60,524 bases of DNA from a virus. The DNA is taken from IMG/VR virus record IMGVR_UViG_3300037511_000399. One strand, 5' to 3'. Positions 11,811 to 44,621 of this stretch are shown here, piece after piece (the first letter of the stretch is position 1; the number at the start of each line of letters is the position of its first letter). The notes under the pieces are model-generated. The model was not told where the DNA came from and ran no database searches. It saw nothing but the letters and a program-made list of their open reading frames with translations. The position numbers and the translations under genes are program-made.

Positions 11811-12007
11811 CCGTCGATCAGCTGATCGCTGTGCTGCGGAGTCTCACGCCCGAGGAGCGCGCGCGGCCCATCGCGTTCGACAGTGGAGTGTGTGAGATCG
11901 AGAGCGTCGAGATGAACGATGGCAAGGGTGTGGGACTGCCGCCGTTCGTTGAGGTGAGCTCGGCGTACTGGGGTGACACCACGAAGGAACGGATTCGCCG
12001 ATGCTGA
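11807..12007 (+). CDS. hypothetical protein
   Basis: ORF-track 66 aa, ATGA-coupled. Confidence 0.55.
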   Translation: MTVDQLIAVLRSLTPEERARPIAFDSGVCEIESVEMNDGKGVGLPPFVEVSSAYWGDTTKERIRRC

Positions 12008-12585
12008 CTCGCCGCACCTTCCTACGCGCGCTGCTCGGTTCAGCTGCAGGCGCAGCGCTGGCGCCCATCGTCGAGCCCGGCGAGCGCGTGCGTCGCTTCT
12101 GGCAGGTGCCGCGCAGCGCGCCGGTGAACGCCCGCGCGCCATTCGCCGGCGCTGAAGCCGAGGGCCGCTCGTTCCGCTTCGCGGAGCCCGTGCGCCTGAT
12201 CGGCGAGCACGGCGCCACGCTGCGGAGTGGTCGCGCGTTCGAGCTGCAGCTTGGCAACGAGCCGCCGCGCACGCTCGCTGGTCGACTGCACGCGATCGAT
12301 GAAATGCGCGCGCTCGGCCTGGTCGAGGATGGCGGCGACCTGCGCGCGCTGCTCGAGCGGCCGGGACCGCTCAGCGCCGACGAGGCGAGGCGCACGCTCG
12401 CAAACGCGGACGCGCTGTTCGGCATCGACGCGGGCTCATATCCGCGCTGGCGTGAGGTGAACTTTTCCGACGTCCCGTCGCTGAAGGAAGCGTTGGACCG
12501 GATCGCTCGCCCTGGGCATCGCTGGGGCCGCTACGATGCCGAGCTCGGCGAGGTGGTTTATGGCGACCCGAGCGACAACGGGTGA
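12001..12585 (+). CDS. Tat-signal (twin-arginine) exported protein, function unknown
   Basis: ORF-track 194 aa. The N-terminus MLTRRTFLRALLGSAAGAALAP matches the S/T-R-R-x-F-L twin-arginine consensus followed by an h-region. Confidence 0.6.
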   Translation: MLTRRTFLRALLGSAAGAALAPIVEPGERVRRFWQVPRSAPVNARAPFAGAEAEGRSFRFAEPVRLIGEHGATLRSGRAFELQLGNEPPRTLAGRLHAIDEMRALGLVEDGGDLRALLERPGPLSADEARRTLANADALFGIDAGSYPRWREVNFSDVPSLKEALDRIARPGHRWGRYDAELGEVVYGDPSDNG

Positions 12586-30633: not shown

Positions 30634-32390
30634 TGCCGCCGTTCAACCCTTTCGCAGATCCGGACGAGGAAGAGCGCCAGCGCGAGCTGCTCGCGCAGCA
30701 GGCGTCGCCAGCGGCCGCGCCCTACGCGTCGCCCATCCCTCGAGGTGACGAGCCGTCGCTCGGCGCCGGCGCCGAGCCGTCGCCCATCGATCGAGCAATC
30801 AGCGACGCGTCGCCCGTCGACGAGCGACAGCTGCCGCCCGACCCGTCGCCGAAGGCCTCGGCGGACGATTCGCCGAGCTCGCCGCTCGAGCAGCTCGCGC
30901 AGCGCTACGCCAGCCAGGCCATGCAGAGCCCGCAGATGTCACGGCGCGCCGCGCCGCAGCTGCCCGACGTGCCGCTCGCGCCCGAGACGCCGACCTGGGC
31001 GCTGGTCGGCGGCGGGCTGCTCGATCTCGCGCTCAACAAGGGCCGCAACGCGCCGCGCTTCCTCCAAGCGATCGCGAACGGGGGCGACGCGACGCGTTAC
31101 GAGAACTACCGGCGCATGGCCGAGCGCGCGAAGACGCAGAGCGCGCTCGACAACGCCTACGCCGGCGGCGGCCGCTGGAATCAGGCCGTCGACCCCATGA
31201 CGATGGCGGCGCGCCTGCAGGGCCTCGCGCTGTCACAGAAGCGGCTCGGGCTCGCGGGCCAGCGCGAACAGCGCATCGATGAGCAGTGGACCGAGATGAA
31301 CGACCCGAACAGCGCGACCGCCAAGACGTACCGCGAAGCGGCGGTGCGCGGCGGCATCGATCCCAAGACGGTCGACGGGCTGTCGGCGACTGCGGTGCAG
31401 AAACTGTTCCCGACCGTCAACGACTACCTCAAGAACACGGGCGCCGTTGGTCAGGCACGCACTGATCGCGCTGCTGCAACCGCATCGGCGGTCAGCAACG
31501 CCACGCAGCCCAACAAGGAAAGGCTCGCGGGCATCAACGCGAACCTGCGCGACGCCGGCGCGCCCGAGGCCATGGGCGGCCCGATCGATTGGGAAGCCGA
31601 ACACGCCGCGTTCGCGCAGCACTTCCCCGATGGCGTCGTGCCGGTCGAATGGGAGCAGCGGTTCAGCGCGCTGCAGAAGGGTCCAGCCAAGCAGATCCCG
31701 ATGCGGCTCGAGCAGCTCTACAAGGACATGGGAGCCGGGCCACCGCGCGCGGGTGCACCCAAGACGGCGGGCGAGCAGTCCGACCTGGTCGCGCAGTTCG
31801 AGGCCGCAAACCCGGCGCTCGTCGTGGTGCAGCCTGAGACGTACACGCGGATCGCGAGCAACCCGCGGACGCAGACGGCCGTGCAGCAGCAGCTGTCGAC
31901 CGCAACGCGCGCGATCGATGCGAGCAATCGGCTGCAGCAGATCGTCGCCGAGTACGACCGGCTCAGCCCTGCCGACAAAGTGTCGGGCCCCGGCATCGCG
32001 CTGCGCGACGAGTACGACAAGCTGAAGGATGAGCACCAGGGCATCATCTTGAAGATCGCGGGCAGCGGCGGAACCGGTGCCGAGCGCGAGGAGATCAAGG
32101 CGGGCCTTCCCGAGCTGTCCTACCTGGGCGCGCCCAACCCGGTCGCGGGCGCGCGGCTCAAAGGCATCGCCCGCATGCTCCACCTCAACGTCGCCGCCAA
32201 CCTCGCGCCGTACGGCTTGGGCGTGCGCGGCGAGACCGAGGCGCGCCCGATCGCGAAGAAGAAGGCGCCATACAAGCCGACCGACGTCCCGGGCCGCATC
32301 AACTACCGCGGGCCGGTCGGCTCGAGCGGAGGCGGCGCAAAGCCGCTCAGCAAGGACGAGGAAAGCGCGCTCGATAAGGAGCTGTTCTAA
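30633..32390 (+). CDS. internal-virion-like protein
   Basis: In frame of ORF 30111..32390. ATG 30633 overlaps the upstream TGA. 585 aa. Confidence 0.45.
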   Translation: MPPFNPFADPDEEERQRELLAQQASPAAAPYASPIPRGDEPSLGAGAEPSPIDRAISDASPVDERQLPPDPSPKASADDSPSSPLEQLAQRYASQAMQSPQMSRRAAPQLPDVPLAPETPTWALVGGGLLDLALNKGRNAPRFLQAIANGGDATRYENYRRMAERAKTQSALDNAYAGGGRWNQAVDPMTMAARLQGLALSQKRLGLAGQREQRIDEQWTEMNDPNSATAKTYREAAVRGGIDPKTVDGLSATAVQKLFPTVNDYLKNTGAVGQARTDRAAATASAVSNATQPNKERLAGINANLRDAGAPEAMGGPIDWEAEHAAFAQHFPDGVVPVEWEQRFSALQKGPAKQIPMRLEQLYKDMGAGPPRAGAPKTAGEQSDLVAQFEAANPALVVVQPETYTRIASNPRTQTAVQQQLSTATRAIDASNRLQQIVAEYDRLSPADKVSGPGIALRDEYDKLKDEHQGIILKIAGSGGTGAEREEIKAGLPELSYLGAPNPVAGARLKGIARMLHLNVAANLAPYGLGVRGETEARPIAKKKAPYKPTDVPGRINYRGPVGSSGGGAKPLSKDEESALDKELF

Positions 32391-34792
32391 TGCCCGGCCC
32401 CGGTGACTGGTACGACGGCAACGGCGACCCGTTCGAGGCGCCGAAGTACCTGCGCGCGCGCGAAGCGCTCGAGCGCGGCGTCAGCCCCGAGATGCGCGCC
32501 AAGCTCGAGGATGCGATCGGCGAGTACGAGCTGATCCACACCCCGGCCGGACCGAACGGCGAGGACGTTCCCGATCCGCCGAGCCAGCGTGAAGGCGACA
32601 ACGAAGTGCAGGAGCCGCCCGGCCCCGAGGAGCCCGAGCCCGCTGCGCCGCCTGCAGCTGCGCCAGCGCCCGCGCCGAGCTCGCCGCGGCGCACGCCGAT
32701 GCAAACCTTCGTGTCGCGCCCGCGCGACGACTACGGCGGCGTGGGCGCGCTGTTCACCGGTGAGGCCGCGGCGCCGCAGCCCGCGCAGCGCGGTGACACG
32801 CCGTTCGCGATCGGCGCACGCAACCCGTTCAGTCTCGGCGACGATGCCGTAGGCGTCGGCGCGAAGCTCTCGCGCATGCTGCCGTCGTGGCTCGGCGGCA
32901 GCTCGGGCACGGTGCAGCAGAGCCAGCGCAGCTTCGTCGAGCCCGACGACGCGAGCCACGACGTCAGCGTTTACCCGGTCGCGAAGGCCGAGGAGCAGGC
33001 GAACCAGCGCTGGGCCGAGCGTACCGACCCAACGATGTACAACCTCGGCAAGGGCAGCGTTGAGACGCTCGCGACCGCGCCGCTGATGCTGACCGGCGCG
33101 GGCGAAGCTGCGGCGCTGGGCACACGCCTTGGCGTCGCCGGAGCTCAGCAGCTGGCTGCGCGAGCTGCGCCCAGCATCGCCGAGATCGCCGCGGGCGGCG
33201 GCCTGCAGGGCATGGCCAGCGGCGCGCTCGAGGCCGGTGGCGAGAGCGAGGCCCCGACCGCAAGCGGCGTGGCCAACGACATGGCGCGCGGCGGCGTGCG
33301 CGGTGGCGGTGCTGGCTTTGCAACGGCGGGACTGATGGGCGCTGCGCCGCGCGGCGCTGTCGCGGCTGTGCCACTCGGCATTGCTGGCGCGACTTACGGC
33401 GCCGTCGAGTCGGAGGATCCGAGCGTCGGCGGTCGGCTGCTCAACGCTGCCAAGTACGGCGTGGGCGCGGGCGTCGGCGGCTCCGCGCTGCTCGGGCTCG
33501 CCGCGCCCAACGTCTCGCGGAAGGCGCTCGAGGCGCTCGCTGACAGCGGTGCCGGCGCTGCGCCTGTCGGCGCGGGCCTGGTGCGCGATATCGGTAAGAA
33601 GGCTGCTCGACTGCGCGCAGGTGCAGCCGGCGGGTACGGAGCAGAGGTCGACAAGCTCGCGAAGGCAGCGGGCAAGCCGCCCGATGAAGTGATGGAGCAG
33701 CTCGGCAACAACGTCGAGCGCCTCAACATTCACAAGCGGCGCGGCCTGTTCAAGTTCCTGCCGAGCACGCCCGGTGTGTATGCGAAGAACGCCGAGCGAG
33801 TGGTCGAGCGTGTCGGTCCGGAGGTCGACGCGACGCTGCGCGAAGCTGGCGACCAGGGCGTCACGATTCCGCGCGAGGACATCACCAAGCCGCTGCGCGG
33901 CAAGGCGCGCGCGATCAGCGTCGACACCGACGAGGACGCGGCGAAGGTGCGCGCGTTCCGCAAGATGGCGAACCGCGTCGAGAACAAGGATCCGGAGCTG
34001 CTCTCGCCGCGTCGCGTGTTCGACCTGAAAAAGAAGTACGAGCGCGCCGGCGGATACCGCGGCGATCGCAACGCGCCGCTGAGTCTGCAGGCGAAGGCCG
34101 CAGCGAATCGCGAAGCGGCAGGCGTGCCGCGCGCAGCTCTCTACCAGGCGATGCGTGAGCAGGCCTACCGCGGCACGCCCGTCAACAAGCTCGGGCCCGG
34201 TGAGACCGGCACGCTGCAGCGCTTCGAAGGCGCGATGCAGGACTACGGTCCGGCCAACACCGTCAAGATCCTCGCGCACAAGCGCATGGCGCACGGCATG
34301 GGCAACAACCCGGTGCCGCTCAGCGCTTCGCACGGTGGCCTGACTGGCCTGCTGATCCACGGCGCGAACACGATGGGCCGCGACATCGGCGCCAACGCGC
34401 TGCGTGGCGTCGAGCAGATCGCACGCACCGCGCCGGTCGCACCGCCCCTGGCGTTTCCGGCGGCTGCAGGCGCGCTGCTCGGCACCGGCGCTGCTGCGCC
34501 GCCGCAGCGCCCGCAGGTACCGCCGCAAGCGCCTGCGCCTGCTCAGCAGCCGTCGCCCATGCCGTCGGCACCGCTGCGCAATTCGAACAACGCGGCGCCC
34601 CCAGACAACGGCTTGCACCTGCCCGAGAAGCTGCGTGAGGCGGTGCGGAGCAACCCGGGCGCGTTGGGCCCGCAGGCGTCGTCGCTGCAGAGCGCGTTCA
34701 GCACCGGCGACGAAGGCGAGATCGCCGCCGCGATCCAGAAGGCGATGGAGGATCCCGACTTCCGCACTCGCGTGCTGCCGTCGCTGCAGTAG
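32390..34792 (+). CDS. internal-virion-like protein with Gly/Ala-rich hydrophobic segments
   Basis: ORF-track 800 aa, TAATG overlap start. The central segment (GGGAGFATAGLMGAAP...VGAGVGGSALLGLAAP) resembles membrane-inserting ejection proteins. Confidence 0.45.
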   Translation: MPGPGDWYDGNGDPFEAPKYLRAREALERGVSPEMRAKLEDAIGEYELIHTPAGPNGEDVPDPPSQREGDNEVQEPPGPEEPEPAAPPAAAPAPAPSSPRRTPMQTFVSRPRDDYGGVGALFTGEAAAPQPAQRGDTPFAIGARNPFSLGDDAVGVGAKLSRMLPSWLGGSSGTVQQSQRSFVEPDDASHDVSVYPVAKAEEQANQRWAERTDPTMYNLGKGSVETLATAPLMLTGAGEAAALGTRLGVAGAQQLAARAAPSIAEIAAGGGLQGMASGALEAGGESEAPTASGVANDMARGGVRGGGAGFATAGLMGAAPRGAVAAVPLGIAGATYGAVESEDPSVGGRLLNAAKYGVGAGVGGSALLGLAAPNVSRKALEALADSGAGAAPVGAGLVRDIGKKAARLRAGAAGGYGAEVDKLAKAAGKPPDEVMEQLGNNVERLNIHKRRGLFKFLPSTPGVYAKNAERVVERVGPEVDATLREAGDQGVTIPREDITKPLRGKARAISVDTDEDAAKVRAFRKMANRVENKDPELLSPRRVFDLKKKYERAGGYRGDRNAPLSLQAKAAANREAAGVPRAALYQAMREQAYRGTPVNKLGPGETGTLQRFEGAMQDYGPANTVKILAHKRMAHGMGNNPVPLSASHGGLTGLLIHGANTMGRDIGANALRGVEQIARTAPVAPPLAFPAAAGALLGTGAAAPPQRPQVPPQAPAPAQQPSPMPSAPLRNSNNAAPPDNGLHLPEKLREAVRSNPGALGPQASSLQSAFSTGDEGEIAAAIQKAMEDPDFRTRVLPSLQ

Positions 34793-34803
34793 GCTCGCTG
34801 TCG

Positions 34804-34907
34804 GCGCCCGTCGTCTAACACTCCGGGATACCCAAGCCGGACGGCCGCAAGCCGTGGCAGGACACCGTCGGCAGGCGGGAATGGTGGTTCGAGTCCACCC
34901 GGGCGCT
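34804..34907 (+). ncRNA. atypical 104-nt tRNA-like element (canonical T-arm and 7-bp acceptor closure; anticodon unresolved)
   Basis: The 5' GCGCCCG pairs with the 3' CGGGCGC directly after the T-arm GGTGG-TTCGAGT-CCACC. The interior is about 28 nt too long for a standard cloverleaf. The only anticodon-like arm is ACGG-CCGCAAG-CCGT. Confidence 0.35.
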
Positions 34908-34922
34908 GCTTACGTTGCAACG

Positions 34923-34944
34923 CGTCGCTGCTCGAGCAGCGACG
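34923..34944. terminator. perfect 22-bp palindrome between convergent RNA genes (bidirectional terminator candidate)
   Basis: CGTCGCTGCTCGAGCAGCGACG is its own reverse complement. Confidence 0.5.
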
Positions 34945-34950
34945 GCTCGG

Positions 34951-35023
34951 CTCCGGGGGCAGGATTCGAACCTGCGATCTCTCGAGTAACAGTCGAGCGC
35001 AGTACCAGCTGTGCCACCCCGGA
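34951..35023 (-). tRNA. tRNA-Asn (anticodon GUU)
   Basis: The reverse complement folds by hand as follows. Acceptor TCCGGGG/CCCCGGA. Anticodon arm CTCGA-CTGTTAC-TCGAG. T-arm GCAGG-TTCGAAT-CCTGC. Discriminator G. 73 nt. The D-stem has one C-C mismatch. Confidence 0.85.
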
Positions 35024-35059
35024 ATGAGTGAGCAGGCGCGCCGGATCGCTCCGGTGCGC

Positions 35060-35173
35060 CTATCGATTCAGCTGCAGCTGCGACAGGTACGCCTTGCATA
35101 CGATGCAGCGCGAGGCCCCGAACGGAACCTGTGCACCGCATGCCTTGCAGCGTTTGCCCTTCACGAGCAGCAA
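35060..35173 (-). CDS. possible mini zinc-ribbon protein (CxxC-x9-CxxC), start uncertain
   Basis: Tail of ORF 35060..35317: ...KGKRCKACGAQVPFGASRCIVCKAYLSQLQLNR. Only TTG (35173) or GTG (35164) starts are available and no clear SD is present. Confidence 0.3.
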   Translation of the reverse strand: MLLVKGKRCKACGAQVPFGASRCIVCKAYLSQLQLNR

Positions 35174-35267
35174 CGTAACGCGCGCATCGGTTCGGCGCCA
35201 GCGACTCGAACGCTGATTGGCGGGACCAAGGCCCGCAGTCCTGCCGTTGGACGAGCGCCGAAAGTGC

Positions 35268-35789
35268 TCAGTGGCTGCTGACGCGCAGGCTGTTGTCGTC
35301 GGGCCGGTAGATCGCACGCACCGTCGGGCGCTTGTTGCCGAGCTCGTCGGGATAGAAGCAGGCCCGGCTGATGCGCTCGCAGAGACCCGGGATCGTGCGG
35401 CCGGTGTTCTCGTTGATGAGGTTGGTGACCTGCACCTGGCCGAAGCCGTCTTCGCCCTCGACGTAGAGGTCGGCGCACGGGATCGGATCGCTCTCGACGA
35501 AGTTCGGCAGCGCCCGGCCGGCGACGGTCTCAGTCTTCGAATATGGCTCGTTCGGATCGAGGAACACGACCACGATCGTCTTTTTATCGCTCAGCTTCGA
35601 AGTGTCGAGACGCTTGACGATGCGTGCGAGCGAGACCTGGCCTTTGTGCAACTTGCCGAGCCAGCGACCGGCGAGCGAGTCGATTCCCTCGACGTCTTCG
35701 AGCAGCCAGATCGTGTTTTTGTCGGGCTTGTAGCCCTTGCCCTTCTTGTCGGTCTCGGTGTCGTTCGCGTTGTCGTTCTGATCGGTCAT
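35268..35789 (-). CDS. hypothetical 173-aa protein (acidic/Lys-rich N-terminus), no recognised family
   Basis: ORF-track, ATG start, very diverse composition. Visibly more A/T-rich codons than its neighbours. Confidence 0.7.
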   Translation of the reverse strand: MTDQNDNANDTETDKKGKGYKPDKNTIWLLEDVEGIDSLAGRWLGKLHKGQVSLARIVKRLDTSKLSDKKTIVVVFLDPNEPYSKTETVAGRALPNFVESDPIPCADLYVEGEDGFGQVQVTNLINENTGRTIPGLCERISRACFYPDELGNKRPTVRAIYRPDDNSLRVSSH

Positions 35790-35803
35790 GCGTTGCTCCT
35801 GGT

Positions 35804-36133
35804 TCAGCCGGGCCTGCCGGCGATCTTCGTGGGCGGCCTCTGCAGATCGCGCGCCTGCACCTTGTGGTTCAGCTCGTCAACGATGCGCTTGGCCGCGACC
35901 ATCTCGGAGGCCAGCGCGTTGTTCTGCTTCTCGAGCTTGCCGAACAGCTGATCGAAGTGCTTGCGCGCCTCGACGAGCTTTGTCTCGTACTCCGCTTTCG
36001 CAGCGGCGAGGCCCTCGTCGACCTCTCGCGATCGGTCGCGGTGAGCGAGCCATCGGATCCAACAGTCGCGGGCCCCCACCATGAAAATCAGGACGCTGAA
36101 CAGCGCGGCGAGCGACGGCATGATGGCGAGCAT
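35804..36133 (-). CDS. N-terminally anchored coiled-coil membrane protein (109 aa)
   Basis: In frame of ORF 35804..36523, ATG at 36133. MLAIMPSLAALFSVLIFMVGA is followed by a heptad-like charged helix. Confidence 0.6.
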   Translation of the reverse strand: MLAIMPSLAALFSVLIFMVGARDCWIRWLAHRDRSREVDEGLAAAKAEYETKLVEARKHFDQLFGKLEKQNNALASEMVAAKRIVDELNHKVQARDLQRPPTKIAGRPG

Positions 36134-36250
36134 TGGCGCGGGGCTCCTATTGGCCCCGAGCATATCTCCGCCAAAGGGAAATGTCGTGCGTGCATACCTC
36201 GCCGCCGCCCACAGGCCAGCCGACGCGTTGCGCGGGCGGGAGCGCCAGGG

Positions 36251-36745
36251 GTGACCGCGCTGCCGCCTGACAACGACCTCTCCAAGCTCGATCCGGTGTT
36301 CCGTGAGCGCGTCGAAGAGGTTCTGCGCCGGATGCGGGTCGATGGCTTCGACGCCATCGTGTGGGAGGCTCACCGATCGTTCGAGCGCGCCGAGCAGCTC
36401 GCGCGCGTCGGCACCGGCATCGCGAAGTCGATGCACTGCTACGGCCTGGCCGCCGACATCGTGCCCGCCAAGCCGCCGCATTGGGGCCCGCCGGCGACGT
36501 TCTGGGCCGCGCTGCGCCGCCACATCGAGGCTCTCGGTTGCACGTCAGGCATGACGTTCACGCGCCGCCACGCCAAAGGCGACCTCGACCACATGCAGGC
36601 GCTGCCCGCGAGCTGTGATGCGTGGGTTCGCAACGCGACGGCCGCGGAAATCGCCGAGCGCGTCGCGCTCGAGCTCGACGCCACGTCGCCGGACCGACGC
36701 GACACCATCAAGCAGCCGAGCAAGCCGCCCGGGGGCCATGGATGA
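36251..36745 (+). CDS. peptidase M15-type (VanY / L-Ala-D-Glu peptidase-like) endolysin
   Basis: In frame of ORF 35624..36745. GTG 36251 after GGGAG. Motifs SMHCYGLAADI (S-x-H-x-x-G-x-A-x-D) and DLDH. Confidence 0.7.
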   Translation: MTALPPDNDLSKLDPVFRERVEEVLRRMRVDGFDAIVWEAHRSFERAEQLARVGTGIAKSMHCYGLAADIVPAKPPHWGPPATFWAALRRHIEALGCTSGMTFTRRHAKGDLDHMQALPASCDAWVRNATAAEIAERVALELDATSPDRRDTIKQPSKPPGGHG

Positions 36746-37083
36746 TCGGCGACCAGGATGCGATCGAGCGCAGCCAGCTGAAGGCGCTCGAGGCCTCGCT
36801 GCTGGCTCCGCACCAGCCGGCGATCGATCGGACGTCGTTCCGGCTCGGGCCCTGGCTCCGCGAGAACGCGGCGCCGACAGCGGTGCGCGAAGCGCTCGAG
36901 GCCTTCGCTCTCGACGTGTTGCGCAAGGATCGGCTGCTGCGTGGCGTCGGCGCGGTGCCGGAGACCACGCTCGAGCCGACGCCGGTGCACAGTCCACGTG
37001 CAGCGATCGAGCCGCAGTCGGCCGCGCAGCGCTGGCCGCAGACCACAGGCGCCGAGTGGCCACAGCGCAGGGGCTCGCGGTGA
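36742..37083 (+). CDS. hypothetical protein in lysis block
   Basis: In frame of ORF 36622..37083, ATGA-coupled. Confidence 0.5.
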   Translation: MIGDQDAIERSQLKALEASLLAPHQPAIDRTSFRLGPWLRENAAPTAVREALEAFALDVLRKDRLLRGVGAVPETTLEPTPVHSPRAAIEPQSAAQRWPQTTGAEWPQRRGSR

Positions 37084-37088
37084 GCGGT

Positions 37089-37538
37089 ATGCCGCCAGCT
37101 CTGACGATCGAGGATCTCGCTAGCGAGGTTGCGAAGGCGCGCGGCGACGCCGGCGACGTCAAGCGCGCGGTGCTCGGTGATTTGCGCTCAGGCGGACTGC
37201 GCGAGCGCCAGGCCGCGGTCGAGACGAGGCTCAACGAGCAGGACCGACTGACCGAGCATCGGCTCGGCTCGTTCGAGACCTGGTTCAAGCACCTCGATCA
37301 GCGCCAAGCGACCTGCGAGGGCTTGCTGCTCGCAATGCAAGCCCGCAGGCCGAGCAGCGTCGTCGTCGGCGCGCTCGTCTTCGCGGCGCTCGCAGTCGCG
37401 GCCTCGGCGATGTTCGTGGCGCGCGACACCGCGTCGATCTCGCGCGATGCCACGCGCCTCGTCAGCATCGCGATCGAGCAGCGCGCCGAGCAAATCGCTG
37501 ATGAACGCGCCGAAGAGCGTTCGCGTGGGGCTCGGTAA
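37089..37538 (+). CDS. membrane protein with C-terminal TM segment (holin/spanin-type candidate)
   Basis: In frame of ORF 36615..37538. A coiled-coil N-terminus is followed by SSVVVGALVFAALAVAASAMFVA. Confidence 0.45.
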   Translation: MPPALTIEDLASEVAKARGDAGDVKRAVLGDLRSGGLRERQAAVETRLNEQDRLTEHRLGSFETWFKHLDQRQATCEGLLLAMQARRPSSVVVGALVFAALAVAASAMFVARDTASISRDATRLVSIAIEQRAEQIADERAEERSRGAR

Positions 37539-37541
37539 TGC

Positions 37542-38012
37542 ATGGCCGATCAGGAGTCGTTGTCGTTCAGCTTCAGCGCGAGCACGAAGGTGTGGCTGGC
37601 CATCGTGACGATCGTCGGCACGCTCGGGAGCAGCATCTACGCGGTGGTGTCCTGGGTCGGCGCTCGTTCCGACCTGCACACGCAGAGCACGAAGATCGAC
37701 GACAAGCTCGAGTCCGAGCTCAGCGTGTGGGAAGGCGAAAAAGCCGACCTGCGCGAAGCGCTCTGCGTGCAGCGCATCGAGCTGCGCCTGCTCGCTGCCG
37801 CGGTCGTGCGTACGAAGGCCGCAGAAGCCGAGCCCGTTCGCGCACGTCGCGCCGAGACCGCGAGCAGCGCGTACAGCGCATTCATGGACGCCACGCGCGA
37901 CTGGGGCAGCTGCAAGGACAGCGTGCACGTCTCGAACGAGCGGCTGCGCGAGCGGCCGCTCAATGCTGCTTGGCGGCAAACGCTCGGCACACCGCCGCCG
38001 AACAGCGACTGA
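37542..38012 (+). CDS. N-terminal TM plus coiled-coil protein (i-spanin-like candidate)
   Basis: ORF-track 156 aa. VWLAIVTIVGTLGSSIYAVVSWV is followed by a charged helical region. Confidence 0.45.
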   Translation: MADQESLSFSFSASTKVWLAIVTIVGTLGSSIYAVVSWVGARSDLHTQSTKIDDKLESELSVWEGEKADLREALCVQRIELRLLAAAVVRTKAAEAEPVRARRAETASSAYSAFMDATRDWGSCKDSVHVSNERLRERPLNAAWRQTLGTPPPNSD

Positions 38013-40622: not shown

Positions 40623-43600
40623 GTGCCGTCGCTCAACGCCAACAGCTCCGGCACGCTGGCGCTGACCAGCAACCTGCCCGGTCTCGCGTCCAACACGTAC
40701 AACTACACGCTGCGCGTGTTCTTCCGGCTGCTGGGGCTGGCCGACCAGCCCGTGATGACGATCGACGACGCCGGCTCCAACTACTGGCAGTGGTGGACGA
40801 CGGCCGCCGGCGCGCTCGAGATCGACAGCAACACCGGCAACACGGCGCTGCTCACAGGTCTGTCGACGAGCGAGTGGATCGGCATCATTTCGCGGATCGA
40901 CGCCAGCACGTCGCGCACCTGCACGCGGCGAGGCTTGGCAAAGCCCGTGTTCACGAACGCGACCGACGTCCTGGCCGCGAGCGGCATCTGGCTCGCGGGC
41001 TCCGGCTTCAGCGAGCACTGCAACGTGGTCGTGCGCGGCTGGGCCATCTGGGACTCGCAACTCACGGACGCCGAGATGATCGCCGAGCTGCAGCAGCTCG
41101 AGCCCGTCAAGCGCGCGACCCTCTTTCACTACGAGGACTGCGGCGGCGTGATCGCAGCGGCAGGCCGCGACGTGAGCGGGCGCGGGCGCAACTTCACGCG
41201 CGCCGGCACGTGGATCGTGTCGCAGTGGGAGCCGCCGGTACCGCCGAACCGCGACTCGACTCAGCGCATCCTCGATGCTGCTGCGAACGCGTACACGCTG
41301 ACAGCTGCAAGCAAGGGCATCGACCTGGCCGAGCGGTCGGCTGGGCTCACCGCACAGCGCCAGCTCGCCGCTGCGAGCAAGAGCATCGATCTCGCCGAGC
41401 AGTCGGCGGTGCTGAACTATGGGTTCACCTTGCCGGCCTCGAGCGCGGCGCTGAACCTCGCCGAGCGAGATGCAGGCTTGACCGCGCAGCGGACGCTGGC
41501 GGCTGCGAGCAAGAGCATCAACCTGGCCGAGCAGGCGGCGAGCCTGTCGGGAGCGTTCCCTCTCGTCGCGTCGGCGAGCGGTCGTTTCCTCCAAGATCAG
41601 AACGGCGTTCCGTTTCGCATCCAGAGTGAGAGCGCGTGGCTCATGTCGATCTACGGCACGAGCTCGAGCGTCGACAGCTACCTCGACGATCGACTGGCGA
41701 AGGGGTTCAACACCTTCATTTTGATGCCGATCGTCACATCTGACTTCGGTGGTCCCAACAATGCGAATGGTGATGCCCCATTCAGCACAGCCGGGCACTT
41801 CTCGACCACAAACAATGCGTACTGGAATTTCATCGACACCATCATGACCAAGGCGCTGGCGCGCAACATGGTGGTCAAGTTTGCGATGGTGTATCTCGGC
41901 TTCGGCGGCGGCTCGCAGGGCTGGGCGAGCGAGATCACGCAGAGCTACAACGCCGATCCGGTGATGTTCAACTATGGGGTTTTTCTCGCGACCCGCTACG
42001 CGAGCTTTCCCAATGTCATCTGGTACACGTGCGGTGACTACGGCCCTCCGACAGGCGGCACGCTCAGCTTGCGCGTGCAGAAGGTTCGCGACGGCATTCT
42101 CTCCGTGCTGCCGGACGCGATCTTCGGCGCTGAAATGGACAACCCCGACACGATGCCGGGGGACTACACAGATTTCAGCAACCTAGACTGCAACACAGCA
42201 TATGGGTACGGGCCGAGCGGTCGTCCTGATCAGACGTACGACACTGCCGATCGCAGCTGGGGGTATGGAAAGCCCGCGTGGATCGGTGAGCCCGCGTACG
42301 AAGACACAGCGTTTGGAACCGATCCATCGCGCGAAGGCATCCGCGCATCGCAGTGGTGGTCGATCACAGGCGGCATGGTCGCTGGCTGCAGCATGGGCAC
42401 GAAGGGTATCTGGGATTTCGGGCTCTCAGCGTCGGTTGCGTCGCGGCTCGAGACCGACGTTTGCCACGACACCGTCTATCAAAACGACTTCTGGTCAGCG
42501 CTCAAGTGGTACCTGCATGTGCCGAGCGGCAAGACAGAGATCTCGAGCCGCACGCTCTGCTCACAGCCGAGCGCCAACAACTACGAGCACGTCCAGGCGA
42601 GCATGGCCAGCGACGGCAGCTCGCTCGTTGCGTACGTGCCGCCCAACGGCACGGGCACCGTCACATTCACAGTAGACCTGCGCGGCATGGCCGCGGGCAC
42701 GCTGCGCGCGCGCTGGTACAACCCGACCGACGGCACCTACAGCACGACCGGCCTCACCGGCACGTTCGACAACACGCAGAACGCGAAGAGCGTCACGACG
42801 CCAGGCGACAACGGCACGGCACAGGGTGACTGGGCTCTGCTTGTGGACGTGCCGCCCGCTGCGAACGCGTACACGCTGACAGCTGCGAGCAAGAGCATCG
42901 ACCTGGCCGAGCGGTCGGCTGGGCTCACCGCACAGCGCCTGCTGACGGCCGGCAGCGCGGCAAGCAACCTCGCAGAGCAGCCGGCAGGGCTCACGGCGCA
43001 GCGCGTGCTTGCCGCGGTCGCTGCGTCGCTGAACATGGCCGAGCAGGCGGCGGGTCTCACCGCACAGCGCGTGCTCAGCGCCGCGAGCAAGAGCCTCGAC
43101 CTCGCCGCGAACGATGCCGCGCTGCTGTATGGCCTGCAGCTGGTCGCCGCGAGCAAGGGCATCGATCTCTCGGCCAACGACGTCGCGCTGCTGCGCGCGC
43201 TGGTGCTGTCGGTGGACAGCAAGGCGCTCGACCTGGCAGGGCGCGACGCGGCCCTGACCTACTCGTCGCTCCGCACGCTCGTCGCGTCGGCGGCGTCGCT
43301 CAACCTGACCGAGCGCGATGCTGGCCTGCTCCGCACGCTGCTGCTTGCGATCGACAGCAAGGCAATCGATCTCTCCGCGCTGCCGGCTACGCTGGCCTGG
43401 TCGTCGCTGGTGACGTCGGTGGGCGCGGTGCGCGCGTCGCGCTCGAGCTCGCGATCGGTGCAGGTCTCTGGAGACCATCGGCCGCGCTCGGTCGCGCTCA
43501 AGCGTCGGCCGACTTACGCGACAAGCACGCGAGCCCAGCACACGCGCGTGAGCGGCGTTCCTGTCCCTGACTACGCCGTGTTCGGCGCGTTGCCGGCGCA

Positions 43601-44621
43601 CCGCGCGGTGTGGTGCCCCTATGAGCGCCTGACCGGGTACGCCGGCCCGCTTGCACGCGCGACCGACCTGGTTGACGGCCGCCAGACTAGCGTCACAGCG
43701 CCGTCGGGCAACGGCTCTCAAGCTGACCTCGATGCGATCATCGCCTTCGGCGGAGCTCACGCGGTCGGCGTGTCCCTCCTGTACGATCAATCCGGCTACA
43801 GCTACTCGGTGCCGTCGCTCGGCAATGATCTGATGTCGGGCGGCTCCGTCGCCTCCCCGTCCTACCCCGGGCCGCCGGTGTACCCCGGCTATCAGGGCAT
43901 CGACCCCGGAGCGATGCCGCGCATCTATGACCCGGCGCAGGGCGGCATCTCCGCCGCCAACGGCAAGCCCTCGCTGCGCTGCACCGGCAACACCAACACC
44001 ATCCAGGCGACGGGGACCTGCTTTCGGCGGGGCCCCTGCTACGGCTATCCCCCTGAGCCGTGGGACCCGGCGAACAACCTGGGCTTCACCGGCAACCCGG
44101 CGATCACGCTCTGGTGGGTCGGTCAGTGGGTGGACGACGGGCTCGGCAACGGCAGCGCGCGGTACCTCATGGAGCTCGGCGAGTTCTTCGGCCCCTCGCT
44201 GCTCGGCGGGCTCGGTCTCTCCGTGCAGGAGCCGGGGCTCAACCGGCTGTGGATCACCGGCGGCCCTGACAACCCTTCTCCGCCGTTCAGCCGGCACCTG
44301 AAGTTCAACCTGACGGTTCCGTACGGAACGATGCAGCACTACGTCGTGCGGCGCGCGGCAGGCGCGCGCTGGGACCAGACGCAGCTCTGGCAGAACGGCG
44401 TGCTGCAAACCAACGTGGTCGCGGGGTCCGGCAACACCGCAGAGCAGCTCCTGCTGCAGCCCAGCCCGTTCGGCGCCATCGCCCTGATGTGCTCCAGCTA
44501 CGAGCAGCAGTACGCCAACGGCTTTCTGCGCGCTGCCGGCGTATGCGCTCAGGCGCTGACCGACGACCAGCTCACCACGTACCTATTTCCCAACCTCAAC
44601 CGCCTTGCTGGGCTTCCGTAG
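40623..44621 (+). CDS. tail fibre / tailspike with embedded glycoside-hydrolase-like domain
   Basis: ORF-track 1332 aa. The domain order is as follows. An N-terminal jelly-roll-like region comes first. Four ~22-aa repeats (AASKSIDLAERSAGLTAQR..) follow. Next is a ~420-aa insert starting RFLQDQNGVPFRIQSESAWLM and ending ...RARWYNPTDGTYS. Then eight more repeats. A distinct ~370-aa C-terminal domain closes the protein. Confidence 0.65.
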   Translation: MPSLNANSSGTLALTSNLPGLASNTYNYTLRVFFRLLGLADQPVMTIDDAGSNYWQWWTTAAGALEIDSNTGNTALLTGLSTSEWIGIISRIDASTSRTCTRRGLAKPVFTNATDVLAASGIWLAGSGFSEHCNVVVRGWAIWDSQLTDAEMIAELQQLEPVKRATLFHYEDCGGVIAAAGRDVSGRGRNFTRAGTWIVSQWEPPVPPNRDSTQRILDAAANAYTLTAASKGIDLAERSAGLTAQRQLAAASKSIDLAEQSAVLNYGFTLPASSAALNLAERDAGLTAQRTLAAASKSINLAEQAASLSGAFPLVASASGRFLQDQNGVPFRIQSESAWLMSIYGTSSSVDSYLDDRLAKGFNTFILMPIVTSDFGGPNNANGDAPFSTAGHFSTTNNAYWNFIDTIMTKALARNMVVKFAMVYLGFGGGSQGWASEITQSYNADPVMFNYGVFLATRYASFPNVIWYTCGDYGPPTGGTLSLRVQKVRDGILSVLPDAIFGAEMDNPDTMPGDYTDFSNLDCNTAYGYGPSGRPDQTYDTADRSWGYGKPAWIGEPAYEDTAFGTDPSREGIRASQWWSITGGMVAGCSMGTKGIWDFGLSASVASRLETDVCHDTVYQNDFWSALKWYLHVPSGKTEISSRTLCSQPSANNYEHVQASMASDGSSLVAYVPPNGTGTVTFTVDLRGMAAGTLRARWYNPTDGTYSTTGLTGTFDNTQNAKSVTTPGDNGTAQGDWALLVDVPPAANAYTLTAASKSIDLAERSAGLTAQRLLTAGSAASNLAEQPAGLTAQRVLAAVAASLNMAEQAAGLTAQRVLSAASKSLDLAANDAALLYGLQLVAASKGIDLSANDVALLRALVLSVDSKALDLAGRDAALTYSSLRTLVASAASLNLTERDAGLLRTLLLAIDSKAIDLSALPATLAWSSLVTSVGAVRASRSSSRSVQVSGDHRPRSVALKRRPTYATSTRAQHTRVSGVPVPDYAVFGALPAHRAVWCPYERLTGYAGPLARATDLVDGRQTSVTAPSGNGSQADLDAIIAFGGAHAVGVSLLYDQSGYSYSVPSLGNDLMSGGSVASPSYPGPPVYPGYQGIDPGAMPRIYDPAQGGISAANGKPSLRCTGNTNTIQATGTCFRRGPCYGYPPEPWDPANNLGFTGNPAITLWWVGQWVDDGLGNGSARYLMELGEFFGPSLLGGLGLSVQEPGLNRLWITGGPDNPSPPFSRHLKFNLTVPYGTMQHYVVRRAAGARWDQTQLWQNGVLQTNVVAGSGNTAEQLLLQPSPFGAIALMCSSYEQQYANGFLRAAGVCAQALTDDQLTTYLFPNLNRLAGLP
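41280..41361 (+). repeat. 82-bp direct repeat, copy 1 (inside tail-fibre gene)
   Basis: 80 of 82 nt identical to 42858-42939. Confidence 0.9.
42858..42939 (+). repeat. 82-bp direct repeat, copy 2 (inside tail-fibre gene)
   Basis: 80 of 82 nt identical to 41280-41361. Confidence 0.9.

Follow-up and report, generated by a model that had tools for sequence, protein, structure and literature searches.

What kind of element interrupts the rightward genes between the virion and lysis regions of the virus record IMGVR_UViG_3300037511_000399, and what might it do? The window, meaning the whole stretch of DNA analysed (60,524 nucleotides, ~60.5 kb, 68.6% G+C), carries at positions 34,951–36,133 a block of minus-strand features that an initial annotation had interpreted as a horizontally acquired moron. 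The block is composed of two parts of different age: an old two-gene module, encoding a membrane anchor of 109 amino acids (aa) and a soluble protein of 173 aa, and a later island of tRNA and zinc-ribbon elements. The features of the older part are the following (ORF, open reading frame; GC3, G+C content at third codon positions):

36,159–36,187, minus strand: sigma-70-like promoter candidate for the module (read from the sequence; conserved in relatives)
35,804–36,133, minus strand: 109-aa single-pass membrane protein, first gene of the pair (ORF, homologues, GC3 0.88)
35,268–35,789, minus strand: 173-aa soluble protein, second gene of the pair, undescribed family (ORF, homologues, AlphaFold2 model)

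The features named in the initial annotation were all recovered in place, including the two protein genes, the zinc-ribbon ORF and tRNA-Asn(GUU), all on the minus strand, as well as a perfect 22-bp palindrome. Plus-strand genes flank the unit at 32,390–34,792 (800 aa) and at 36,251–36,745, and the block is indeed a unit of its own, running toward the last of the large virion genes and away from the endolysin gene. The block is also A/T-richer than its surroundings, as had been noticed, with a 600-nt trough in which G+C falls to 0.613, compared with 0.686 ± 0.026; only one other trough of the window is deeper. However, the accompanying claim that its codon usage is less G/C-biased than that of the flanks did not hold, since GC3 is 0.88 in both genes compared with 0.880 ± 0.023 in 25 reference genes, and the codons of the pair show AAC:AAT and CAG:CAA ratios of 14:0 and 8:0. 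The deficit is confined to codon positions 1 and 2 (G+C of 0.54 and 0.49 versus 0.595 ± 0.041), and the low G+C of the block is therefore a matter of amino-acid composition (rich in K, D, N, E and T) and not of synonymous codon choice. The GC3 of 0.88 is a coding signature of both the 109-aa and the 173-aa genes, both of which have homologues elsewhere.

The related loci (L001, L003 and L008 to L014) were all retrieved through the 173-aa family protein itself, and retention of the pair throughout the clade is not inferable from them. Among these relatives, the pair is located at three different junctions, as accessory genes are. At the first (the window, L001, L003, L009 and L010), it lies on the opposite strand between virion and lysis genes, converging on a virion gene of ~730–800 aa and diverging from the lysis cassette. 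The flanking genes are thus not simply adjacent to each other in L001, L003, L009 and L010, where the pair occupies the junction. At the second (L011–L014), the pair is co-oriented with, and just upstream of, a gene of 145–175 aa, the terminase large subunit gene (TerL) and the portal gene. At the third (L008), the family gene is one of a cluster of small genes that separates TerL from portal. Identity to the window protein falls with phage relatedness, from 63% in L003 and ~51% in L001 to 31–37% in L009 and L010 and 26–31% in L008, L011 and L013. The family diverges faster than the structural genes, showing 26–31% identity where TerL (47–49% identical to that of the window in L011–L014) and portal (45–48%) are better preserved. 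A TerL-based search for an unbiased set of the clade retrieved only distant TerL relatives (25–40%), none with the family, and within ±10 kb of TerL relatives at 29–40% identity the 173-aa family was not found. On these sequence comparisons, the pair is best described as a vertically inherited, clade-restricted, fast-evolving and positionally mobile unit, an old accessory module of a small clade of uncultured high-GC phages. It illustrates well how an accessory module can be ancient in its clade and still change its place in the genome, and it shows that an inverted strand and a low G+C content do not by themselves signal recent horizontal acquisition.

The first gene of the pair has a ribosome-binding site (AGGAG) 10 nt upstream of its ATG and encodes a single N-terminal hydrophobic segment (residues ~1–20, Kyte-Doolittle score 2.43 over residues 1–19), followed by a heptad-rich, helical coiled-coil-like remainder in which 0.88 of the a/d positions are hydrophobic. 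This agrees with its earlier description as a membrane-anchored coiled-coil protein. Anchors of this architecture (93–137 aa) are encoded immediately before the family gene, on the same strand, in the window, L001, L003, L009, L010, L011/L012 and L013/L014, so that a bitopic membrane/coiled-coil gene takes this place in seven of eight lineages; in L008 it is four genes upstream. All eight homologues have no K or R before the anchor and two to six K/R in the 15 residues after it, and by the positive-inside rule the coiled coil is predicted to be cytoplasmic with the N-terminus outside. The eight anchors gave no significant or consistent match to Pfam, PHROGs, NCBIfam or PADLOC; a weak NCBIfam match to ATP synthase subunit b (E = 7e-4) is far under the cut-off. 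Direct comparison also revealed no similarity that would make the 109-aa protein a paralogue of the two membrane proteins of the lysis cassette.

The second gene, with AGGAG placed 6 nt upstream of its ATG, encodes the 173-aa protein. A search of 5.8 billion clusters retrieved three homologues besides the protein itself (52–63% identity), and an exhaustive profile search of 1.84 billion representative proteins gave 13 matches, 12 of them credible (160–198 aa). The match P0015 (960 aa, five matched stretches) was judged spurious, a repetitive protein unrelated to the family. No relatives of the family were found in GTDB representative genomes, IMG/VR or JGI metagenome contigs, tblastn against 50,697 phage records returned only noise (E ≥ 2), and the family profile had no match among PDB sequences. 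The pair was likewise not found outside the small phage clade when representative proteins, GTDB and IMG/VR were searched. The 14 family members showed nothing significant or consistent in Pfam, PHROG, NCBIfam or PADLOC, and neither protein of the pair has a significant family match that would identify it as a tail, assembly or spanin component. AlphaFold2, run on the 14-sequence alignment, produced five models in agreement (predicted local distance difference test score, pLDDT, 89.1; predicted TM-score, pTM, 0.81), in which some 20 disordered residues at the N-terminus lead into a compact alpha/beta domain. When two AlphaFold models were compared by Foldseek with PDB and BFVD, as the initial annotation had suggested, nothing significant emerged (best E = 0.029, TM ≤ 0.28); the top matches of the family models were InvG secretin chains, also not significant. 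By these searches the protein family is an undescribed one, and the modelled fold is probably new.

The family alignment (A2) was too diverse for pattern scanning. Among the conserved columns of the family, P22, G135 and L136 are invariant, whereas T26, V73, V119, G130 and C144 are nearly so, and the family shares an aromatic-x-P-x3-T motif and a Q/P-rich tail. From the small number of conserved columns, and because no catalytic-looking motif survives in the distant members of the 14-sequence alignment, we infer that the 173-aa protein has a binding or structural role rather than an enzymatic one. A signal peptide, an N-terminal hydrophobic signal and a lipobox cysteine are absent from all 14 family members and, with no export signal, the protein is predicted to be one that must be cytoplasmic.

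The spacer upstream of the pair (36,134–36,250) contains the promoter candidate, with a −35 element ACGACA (36,187–36,182), a 17-nt spacer and a −10 element TATGCT (36,164–36,159). ACGACA-17-TATGCT also occurs in L003 and TAGACT-17-TATGCT in L001, giving the common form nnGACa-17-TATGCT. A promoter scan tool reported no promoter at the candidate, its score being under the threshold. The direct repeat GAGrTATGCwC, present at 36,200–36,190 and 36,168–36,158 (minus strand), the copies being 32 nt apart, brackets the candidate and is conserved in L003. These are its only two sites in the window, and the repeat may represent a putative binding site for a regulator. In L009 (7,650–7,713) and L010 (7,604–7,667), a nearly identical non-coding block of ~45 nt precedes the pair, although the proteins are only 39% identical. 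This block, GACACCC(C)GCGACTTTCGGCCG...GGCAAGGTG, contains the inverted repeat GGCCGA/TCGGCC and probably serves as an operator or promoter. Folds of the 5' untranslated region upstream of the module were no better than those of shuffled sequence. The conserved elements point to a dedicated, constrained control region for the pair. In line with the earlier view of an insulated unit, a promoter candidate lies in the spacer and hairpins lie at the far end, but the hairpins lack U-tracts.

Tentatively, we favour the reading that the two proteins assemble at the cytoplasmic side of the membrane, where the anchor would tether them, and that the complex serves in exclusion or as a gatekeeper, in the place that sieA takes in phage P22. 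The tethered complex is proposed because the coiled coil of the anchor and the 173-aa protein are both predicted to be cytoplasmic, and the exclusion role mainly because of the sieA-like position, with which the accessory character of the pair and its rapid divergence agree. In P22, sieA is located on the opposite strand directly after the ejection genes 7-20-16 and before the tailspike gene, with its own annotated promoter (PMC10883804). In the window, likewise a temperate phage, a gene for a predicted inner-membrane protein lies on the opposite strand directly behind the last of the large ejection-type virion genes and ahead of the tailspike gene. Under this model, a host-type promoter of its own in the 36,134–36,250 spacer would drive leftward transcription of the unit, and the 109-aa protein would insert so that the N-terminus faces outward and the coiled coil faces the cytoplasm, as the charge distribution of all eight homologues suggests. 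The anchor would oligomerize and keep the 173-aa protein, which has no signal peptide, at the inner membrane face, a step suggested by gene linkage only. By analogy with SieA, the complex might then act as an accessory membrane gatekeeper, most likely barring the DNA entry of related phages, and the tRNAs would ride on the same transcript and be freed by processing.

Several observations weigh against this interpretation. SieA is a single protein of ~162 aa with three spans, whereas here a one-span anchor accompanies a soluble 173-aa partner. No similarity to SieA or to another exclusion or defence protein was found, the three ORFs had no match at E ≤ 1 to PADLOC-DB profiles, and in some relatives the pair is in line with packaging genes. 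The portal and the 800-aa protein of the window show no similarity to the P22 portal and gp16, so the likeness to P22 is positional only, and the identification of the 852-, 585- and 800-aa genes as ejection-protein genes is based on gene order and composition. The promoter candidate matches only 8 of 12 consensus positions. In both L013 and L014, successive 4-nt overlaps join the family gene to its downstream neighbour and on to TerL and portal, and the anchor genes of L011 and L014 share nucleotides with the stop codon of the preceding gene. This arrangement implies that in L011–L014 the pair is predicted to be co-expressed with packaging genes in the lytic phase, and lysogen-only expression is therefore unlikely for the family as a whole. 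In addition, tRNA genes on the strand of the pair would be useful chiefly in lytic growth, and the retention of the pair in the clade was judged only from loci found through the family protein.

A more general formulation, possible but doubtful in our estimate, is that the one-span anchor and the soluble new-fold protein belong to an unknown two-component system at the cytoplasmic face that blocks the entry of competing phage genomes or counters host defence, and that a whole clade of uncultured phages would have retained while moving it from junction to junction. The kind of element is itself familiar, a phage accessory cassette with phage tRNAs. If exclusion, anti-defence or lysis control were confirmed as its function, the pair would add a new fold and an anchor-plus-soluble-effector architecture to the membrane-level tools of phages. 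Its practical value is limited at present, as the phage is uncultured and most genes of its genome are equally unannotated.

A close rival, although we consider it unlikely, is a role in lysis timing or as an accessory of an envelope step, with the pair modulating the holin/endolysin system as the RI and RIII antiholins of phage T4 do. These antiholins are small accessory proteins, one membrane-associated and one cytoplasmic, which are encoded apart from the holin and endolysin genes, but they have no homology to the pair, and no evidence links the pair to a holin. In the window, the lysis cassette extends over 36,251–38,012 (plus strand). Its endolysin gene begins with GTG at 36,251, a call based on PHROG 465 (E = 1.3e-6) together with a weak Peptidase_M15_4 match; the L009 orthologue carries a precomputed M15_4 match. 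The pair abuts the lysis cassette in five lineages whatever the endolysin type, which is M15 in the window, L003 and L009, weakly CHAP-like in L001 and Amidase_2 in L010. Other lineages hold the pair just upstream of the packaging genes, which is the place of the lysis genes in P22-type phages, and the predicted co-expression with late genes in L013 and L014 would suit a lytic-cycle role. Three members also show weak matches to three different Rz-like spanin PHROGs (E = 0.008–0.05). However, the pair is encoded on the strand opposite to the lysis genes with its own spacer, and it has no significant similarity to holin, antiholin or spanin families. Moreover, the cassette already has two bitopic membrane proteins beside the endolysin (37,089–37,538 and 37,542–38,012), and no endolysin is recognisable within 1.9 kb upstream of the pair in L011.

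Two bitopic coiled-coil membrane proteins, one with a C-terminal and one with an N-terminal anchor, are kept in the cassettes of the window, L001 and L009, and the L010 cassette differs. A lipobox scan of 30–42 kb found no credible lipoprotein ORF and thus no o-spanin near the cassette, so that an outer-membrane step of lysis, should one exist, is not explained by the cassette genes. Impressions of GroES-like and TerS-like genes in L011 had no Pfam support and were not relied on.

Rather improbable, in our judgement, is another membrane function in the lytic cycle, such as a step of head assembly or packaging or the takeover of a host process such as cell division. The tight overlapping operon of family gene, 145-aa gene, TerL and portal in L013 and the location of the L008 family gene between TerL and portal are consistent with it, as are the conserved aromatic-x-P-x3-T motif and Q/P-rich tail of the family. 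The predicted N-out/C-in anchor with a cytoplasmic coiled coil is also the architecture of ATP synthase subunit b, to which the weak NCBIfam match points. On the other hand, essential morphogenetic genes seldom shift position and strand among close relatives, the family is absent near the TerL relatives at 29–40% identity, and it diverges faster than the structural genes.

The moron reading of the initial annotation, taken literally as foreign composition, horizontal acquisition and prophage-only expression, is very improbable and is contradicted for both protein genes. The opposite strand, the local G+C trough, the flanking hairpins and the temperate phage would all fit it, and the tRNA/zinc-ribbon part is truly absent from the relatives. 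According to the definition reportedly given by Hendrix and colleagues, morons of lambdoid phages are said to include lambda bor and lom and HK97 gp15. The pair resembles them in being an autonomous small unit at a module junction, with a candidate promoter, hairpin terminators and a position that varies among relatives. It differs from them in its native synonymous codon usage, in its occurrence at the same site in diverged relatives and in its restriction to one phage clade, and for these three reasons the sequence data indicate that the pair is not a recent foreign addition and that only the tRNA island behaves as an insertion. GC3 equals the genome mean, and L001, L003, L009 and L010 keep the pair at the same junction with proteins 31–63% identical. 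The pair tracks phage relatedness, with no homologue found in other phage lineages, GTDB representative genomes or IMG/VR, and only the tRNA/zinc-ribbon part is lineage-specific. In L011–L014 it stands in line with the late genes.

Finally, a two-component spanin, with the 109-aa protein as i-spanin and the 173-aa protein as o-spanin, shares with Rz/Rz1 a small coiled-coil protein with an N-terminal span followed by a second gene next to the endolysin gene, and could draw on sub-threshold matches to Rz-like PHROGs (best E = 0.0084, with no family common to more than one member) and on the lack of a lipobox o-spanin elsewhere near the cassette, but it is hardly credible and effectively refuted because the 173-aa protein is without any export signal (no family member has a signal peptide or lipobox cysteine), its size and fold are unlike those of an o-spanin, the pair lies on the strand opposite to the lysis genes, and the charge bias predicts, by a sequence rule, a cytoplasmic coiled coil, the reverse of Rz (N-in, with a periplasmic coiled coil).

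The exclusion or gatekeeper reading that we favour concerns the protein pair, and the remainder of the block has a different history. Its elements and the neighbouring convergent end are the following:

35,189–35,261, minus strand: tRNA-Gln(UUG)-like cloverleaf, overlooked in the initial annotation (ARAGORN, default settings only)
35,060–35,173, minus strand: 34–37-aa zinc-ribbon-like ORF (CxxC-x10-CxxC; Pfam DZR match below threshold)
35,034–35,061, minus strand: strong G+C-rich hairpin in the gap between the zinc-ribbon ORF and tRNA-Asn, overlooked in the initial annotation (folding)
34,951–35,023, minus strand: tRNA-Asn(GUU) (ARAGORN; Rfam RF00005, 65.4 bits, E = 5.6e-12)
34,923–34,944, no strand: perfect 22-bp palindrome between the convergent units (sequence; folding)
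34,803–34,909, plus strand: degenerate tRNA-like element, overlooked in the initial annotation (ARAGORN, relaxed threshold and intron mode only)

In L001, L003 and L009, only 3–78 nt separate the family gene from the convergent virion gene, with no tRNA between them. We read the stretch 34,951–35,261, comprising the tRNA-Gln-like element, the zinc-ribbon ORF, the hairpin and tRNA-Asn, as a putative later insertion in this phage only. Its insertion point would be upstream of the palindrome, inside the transcription unit of the module. The palindrome proposed earlier as the closing element is perfect and folds with −20 kcal/mol (z = −2.4), with no U-tract. It is probably an ancestral bidirectional terminator between the convergent units, because L003 keeps a related hairpin (ACGCGTCGCTG...CTCGAGC) between the same convergent genes; L009 has a different hairpin there. 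The hairpin within the island, at 35,061–35,034, is stronger (−23 kcal/mol, z = −4.9, none of 200 shuffles folding as well) and is also not followed by a U-tract.

The tRNA-Asn(GUU) call is solid, with a GTT anticodon in ARAGORN and an Rfam score of 65.4 bits against a threshold of 29, and a blastn search of the region had as its sole match tRNA-Asn in cyanophages. As a canonical tRNA between gene modules, it resembles other phage-borne tRNAs, but it is accompanied by a tRNA-Gln-like element without U33 and by a degenerate remnant on the other strand, which suggests a decaying tRNA cluster. The tRNA-Gln-like element begins 6 nt past the stop codon of the 173-aa gene and has a 7-bp acceptor stem with U1-A72, a normal T-arm and a TTCGAGT T-loop. 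Its anticodon loop, CCUUGGU, has C33 and G37, and Rfam RF00005 did not match it even when 116 nt were searched at E ≤ 10. The element may be an atypical tRNA, either in decay or unusual but functional. The remnant at 34,803–34,909 (plus strand) directly follows the stop codon of the 800-aa gene, on the opposite side of the palindrome from the island. Its 8-bp acceptor stem is perfect and its canonical T-arm reads GGTGG-TTCGAGT-CCACC, but it has no credible anticodon arm, a folding z-score of +0.6 and no Rfam support as tRNA or transfer-messenger RNA (tmRNA).

The zinc ribbon of the initial annotation (35,173–35,060) is present as an ORF with two CxxC knuckles, although their spacing is CxxC-x10-CxxC and not x9. 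Its match to Pfam DZR (PF12773; E = 0.002, 18.6 bits) is under the 27.3-bit cut-off, GC3 is 0.79, and no clear ribosome-binding site precedes it; whether this candidate ORF is a real gene is uncertain. L010 has a double CxxC ORF of ~90 aa at the equivalent position, and a relationship between the two was rejected, as BLAST shows no similarity.

The surrounding genome belongs to a temperate phage, as indicated by a tyrosine integrase (PF00589, 91 bits), and includes recognised portal (PHROG 156), major head protein and terminase large subunit genes. A 100%-identical sequence is present on contigs of 60,531–60,551 bp in the NCBI metagenome-assembled genome (MAG) GCA_036263075.1, a JGI metagenome and several SRA assemblies (L004–L007), and the window is therefore probably a complete, circular temperate phage genome that was binned into a MAG. 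A search with the portal gave one record at 22% identity, and the phage is, by sequence, far from any cultured one. The majority of window genes have no Pfam or PHROG match, so an unannotated gene is the rule in this genome and the darkness of the block is not exceptional.

Elsewhere in the window, the protein encoded at 12,001–12,585 (plus strand) carries a twin-arginine export signal (MLTRRTFLRA...), and its L008 counterpart (2,286–2,669) has a weak TAT_signal Pfam match. A tailspike-like protein of 1332 aa (40,623–44,621, plus strand) combines an apiosidase-like (GH140-type) domain with a collagen-binding-like domain. Its gene contains an internal 86-nt repeat with 96.5% identity between the copies (41,280–41,365 and 42,858–42,943), as well as the deepest G+C trough of the window (0.582, at 41,608–42,207).

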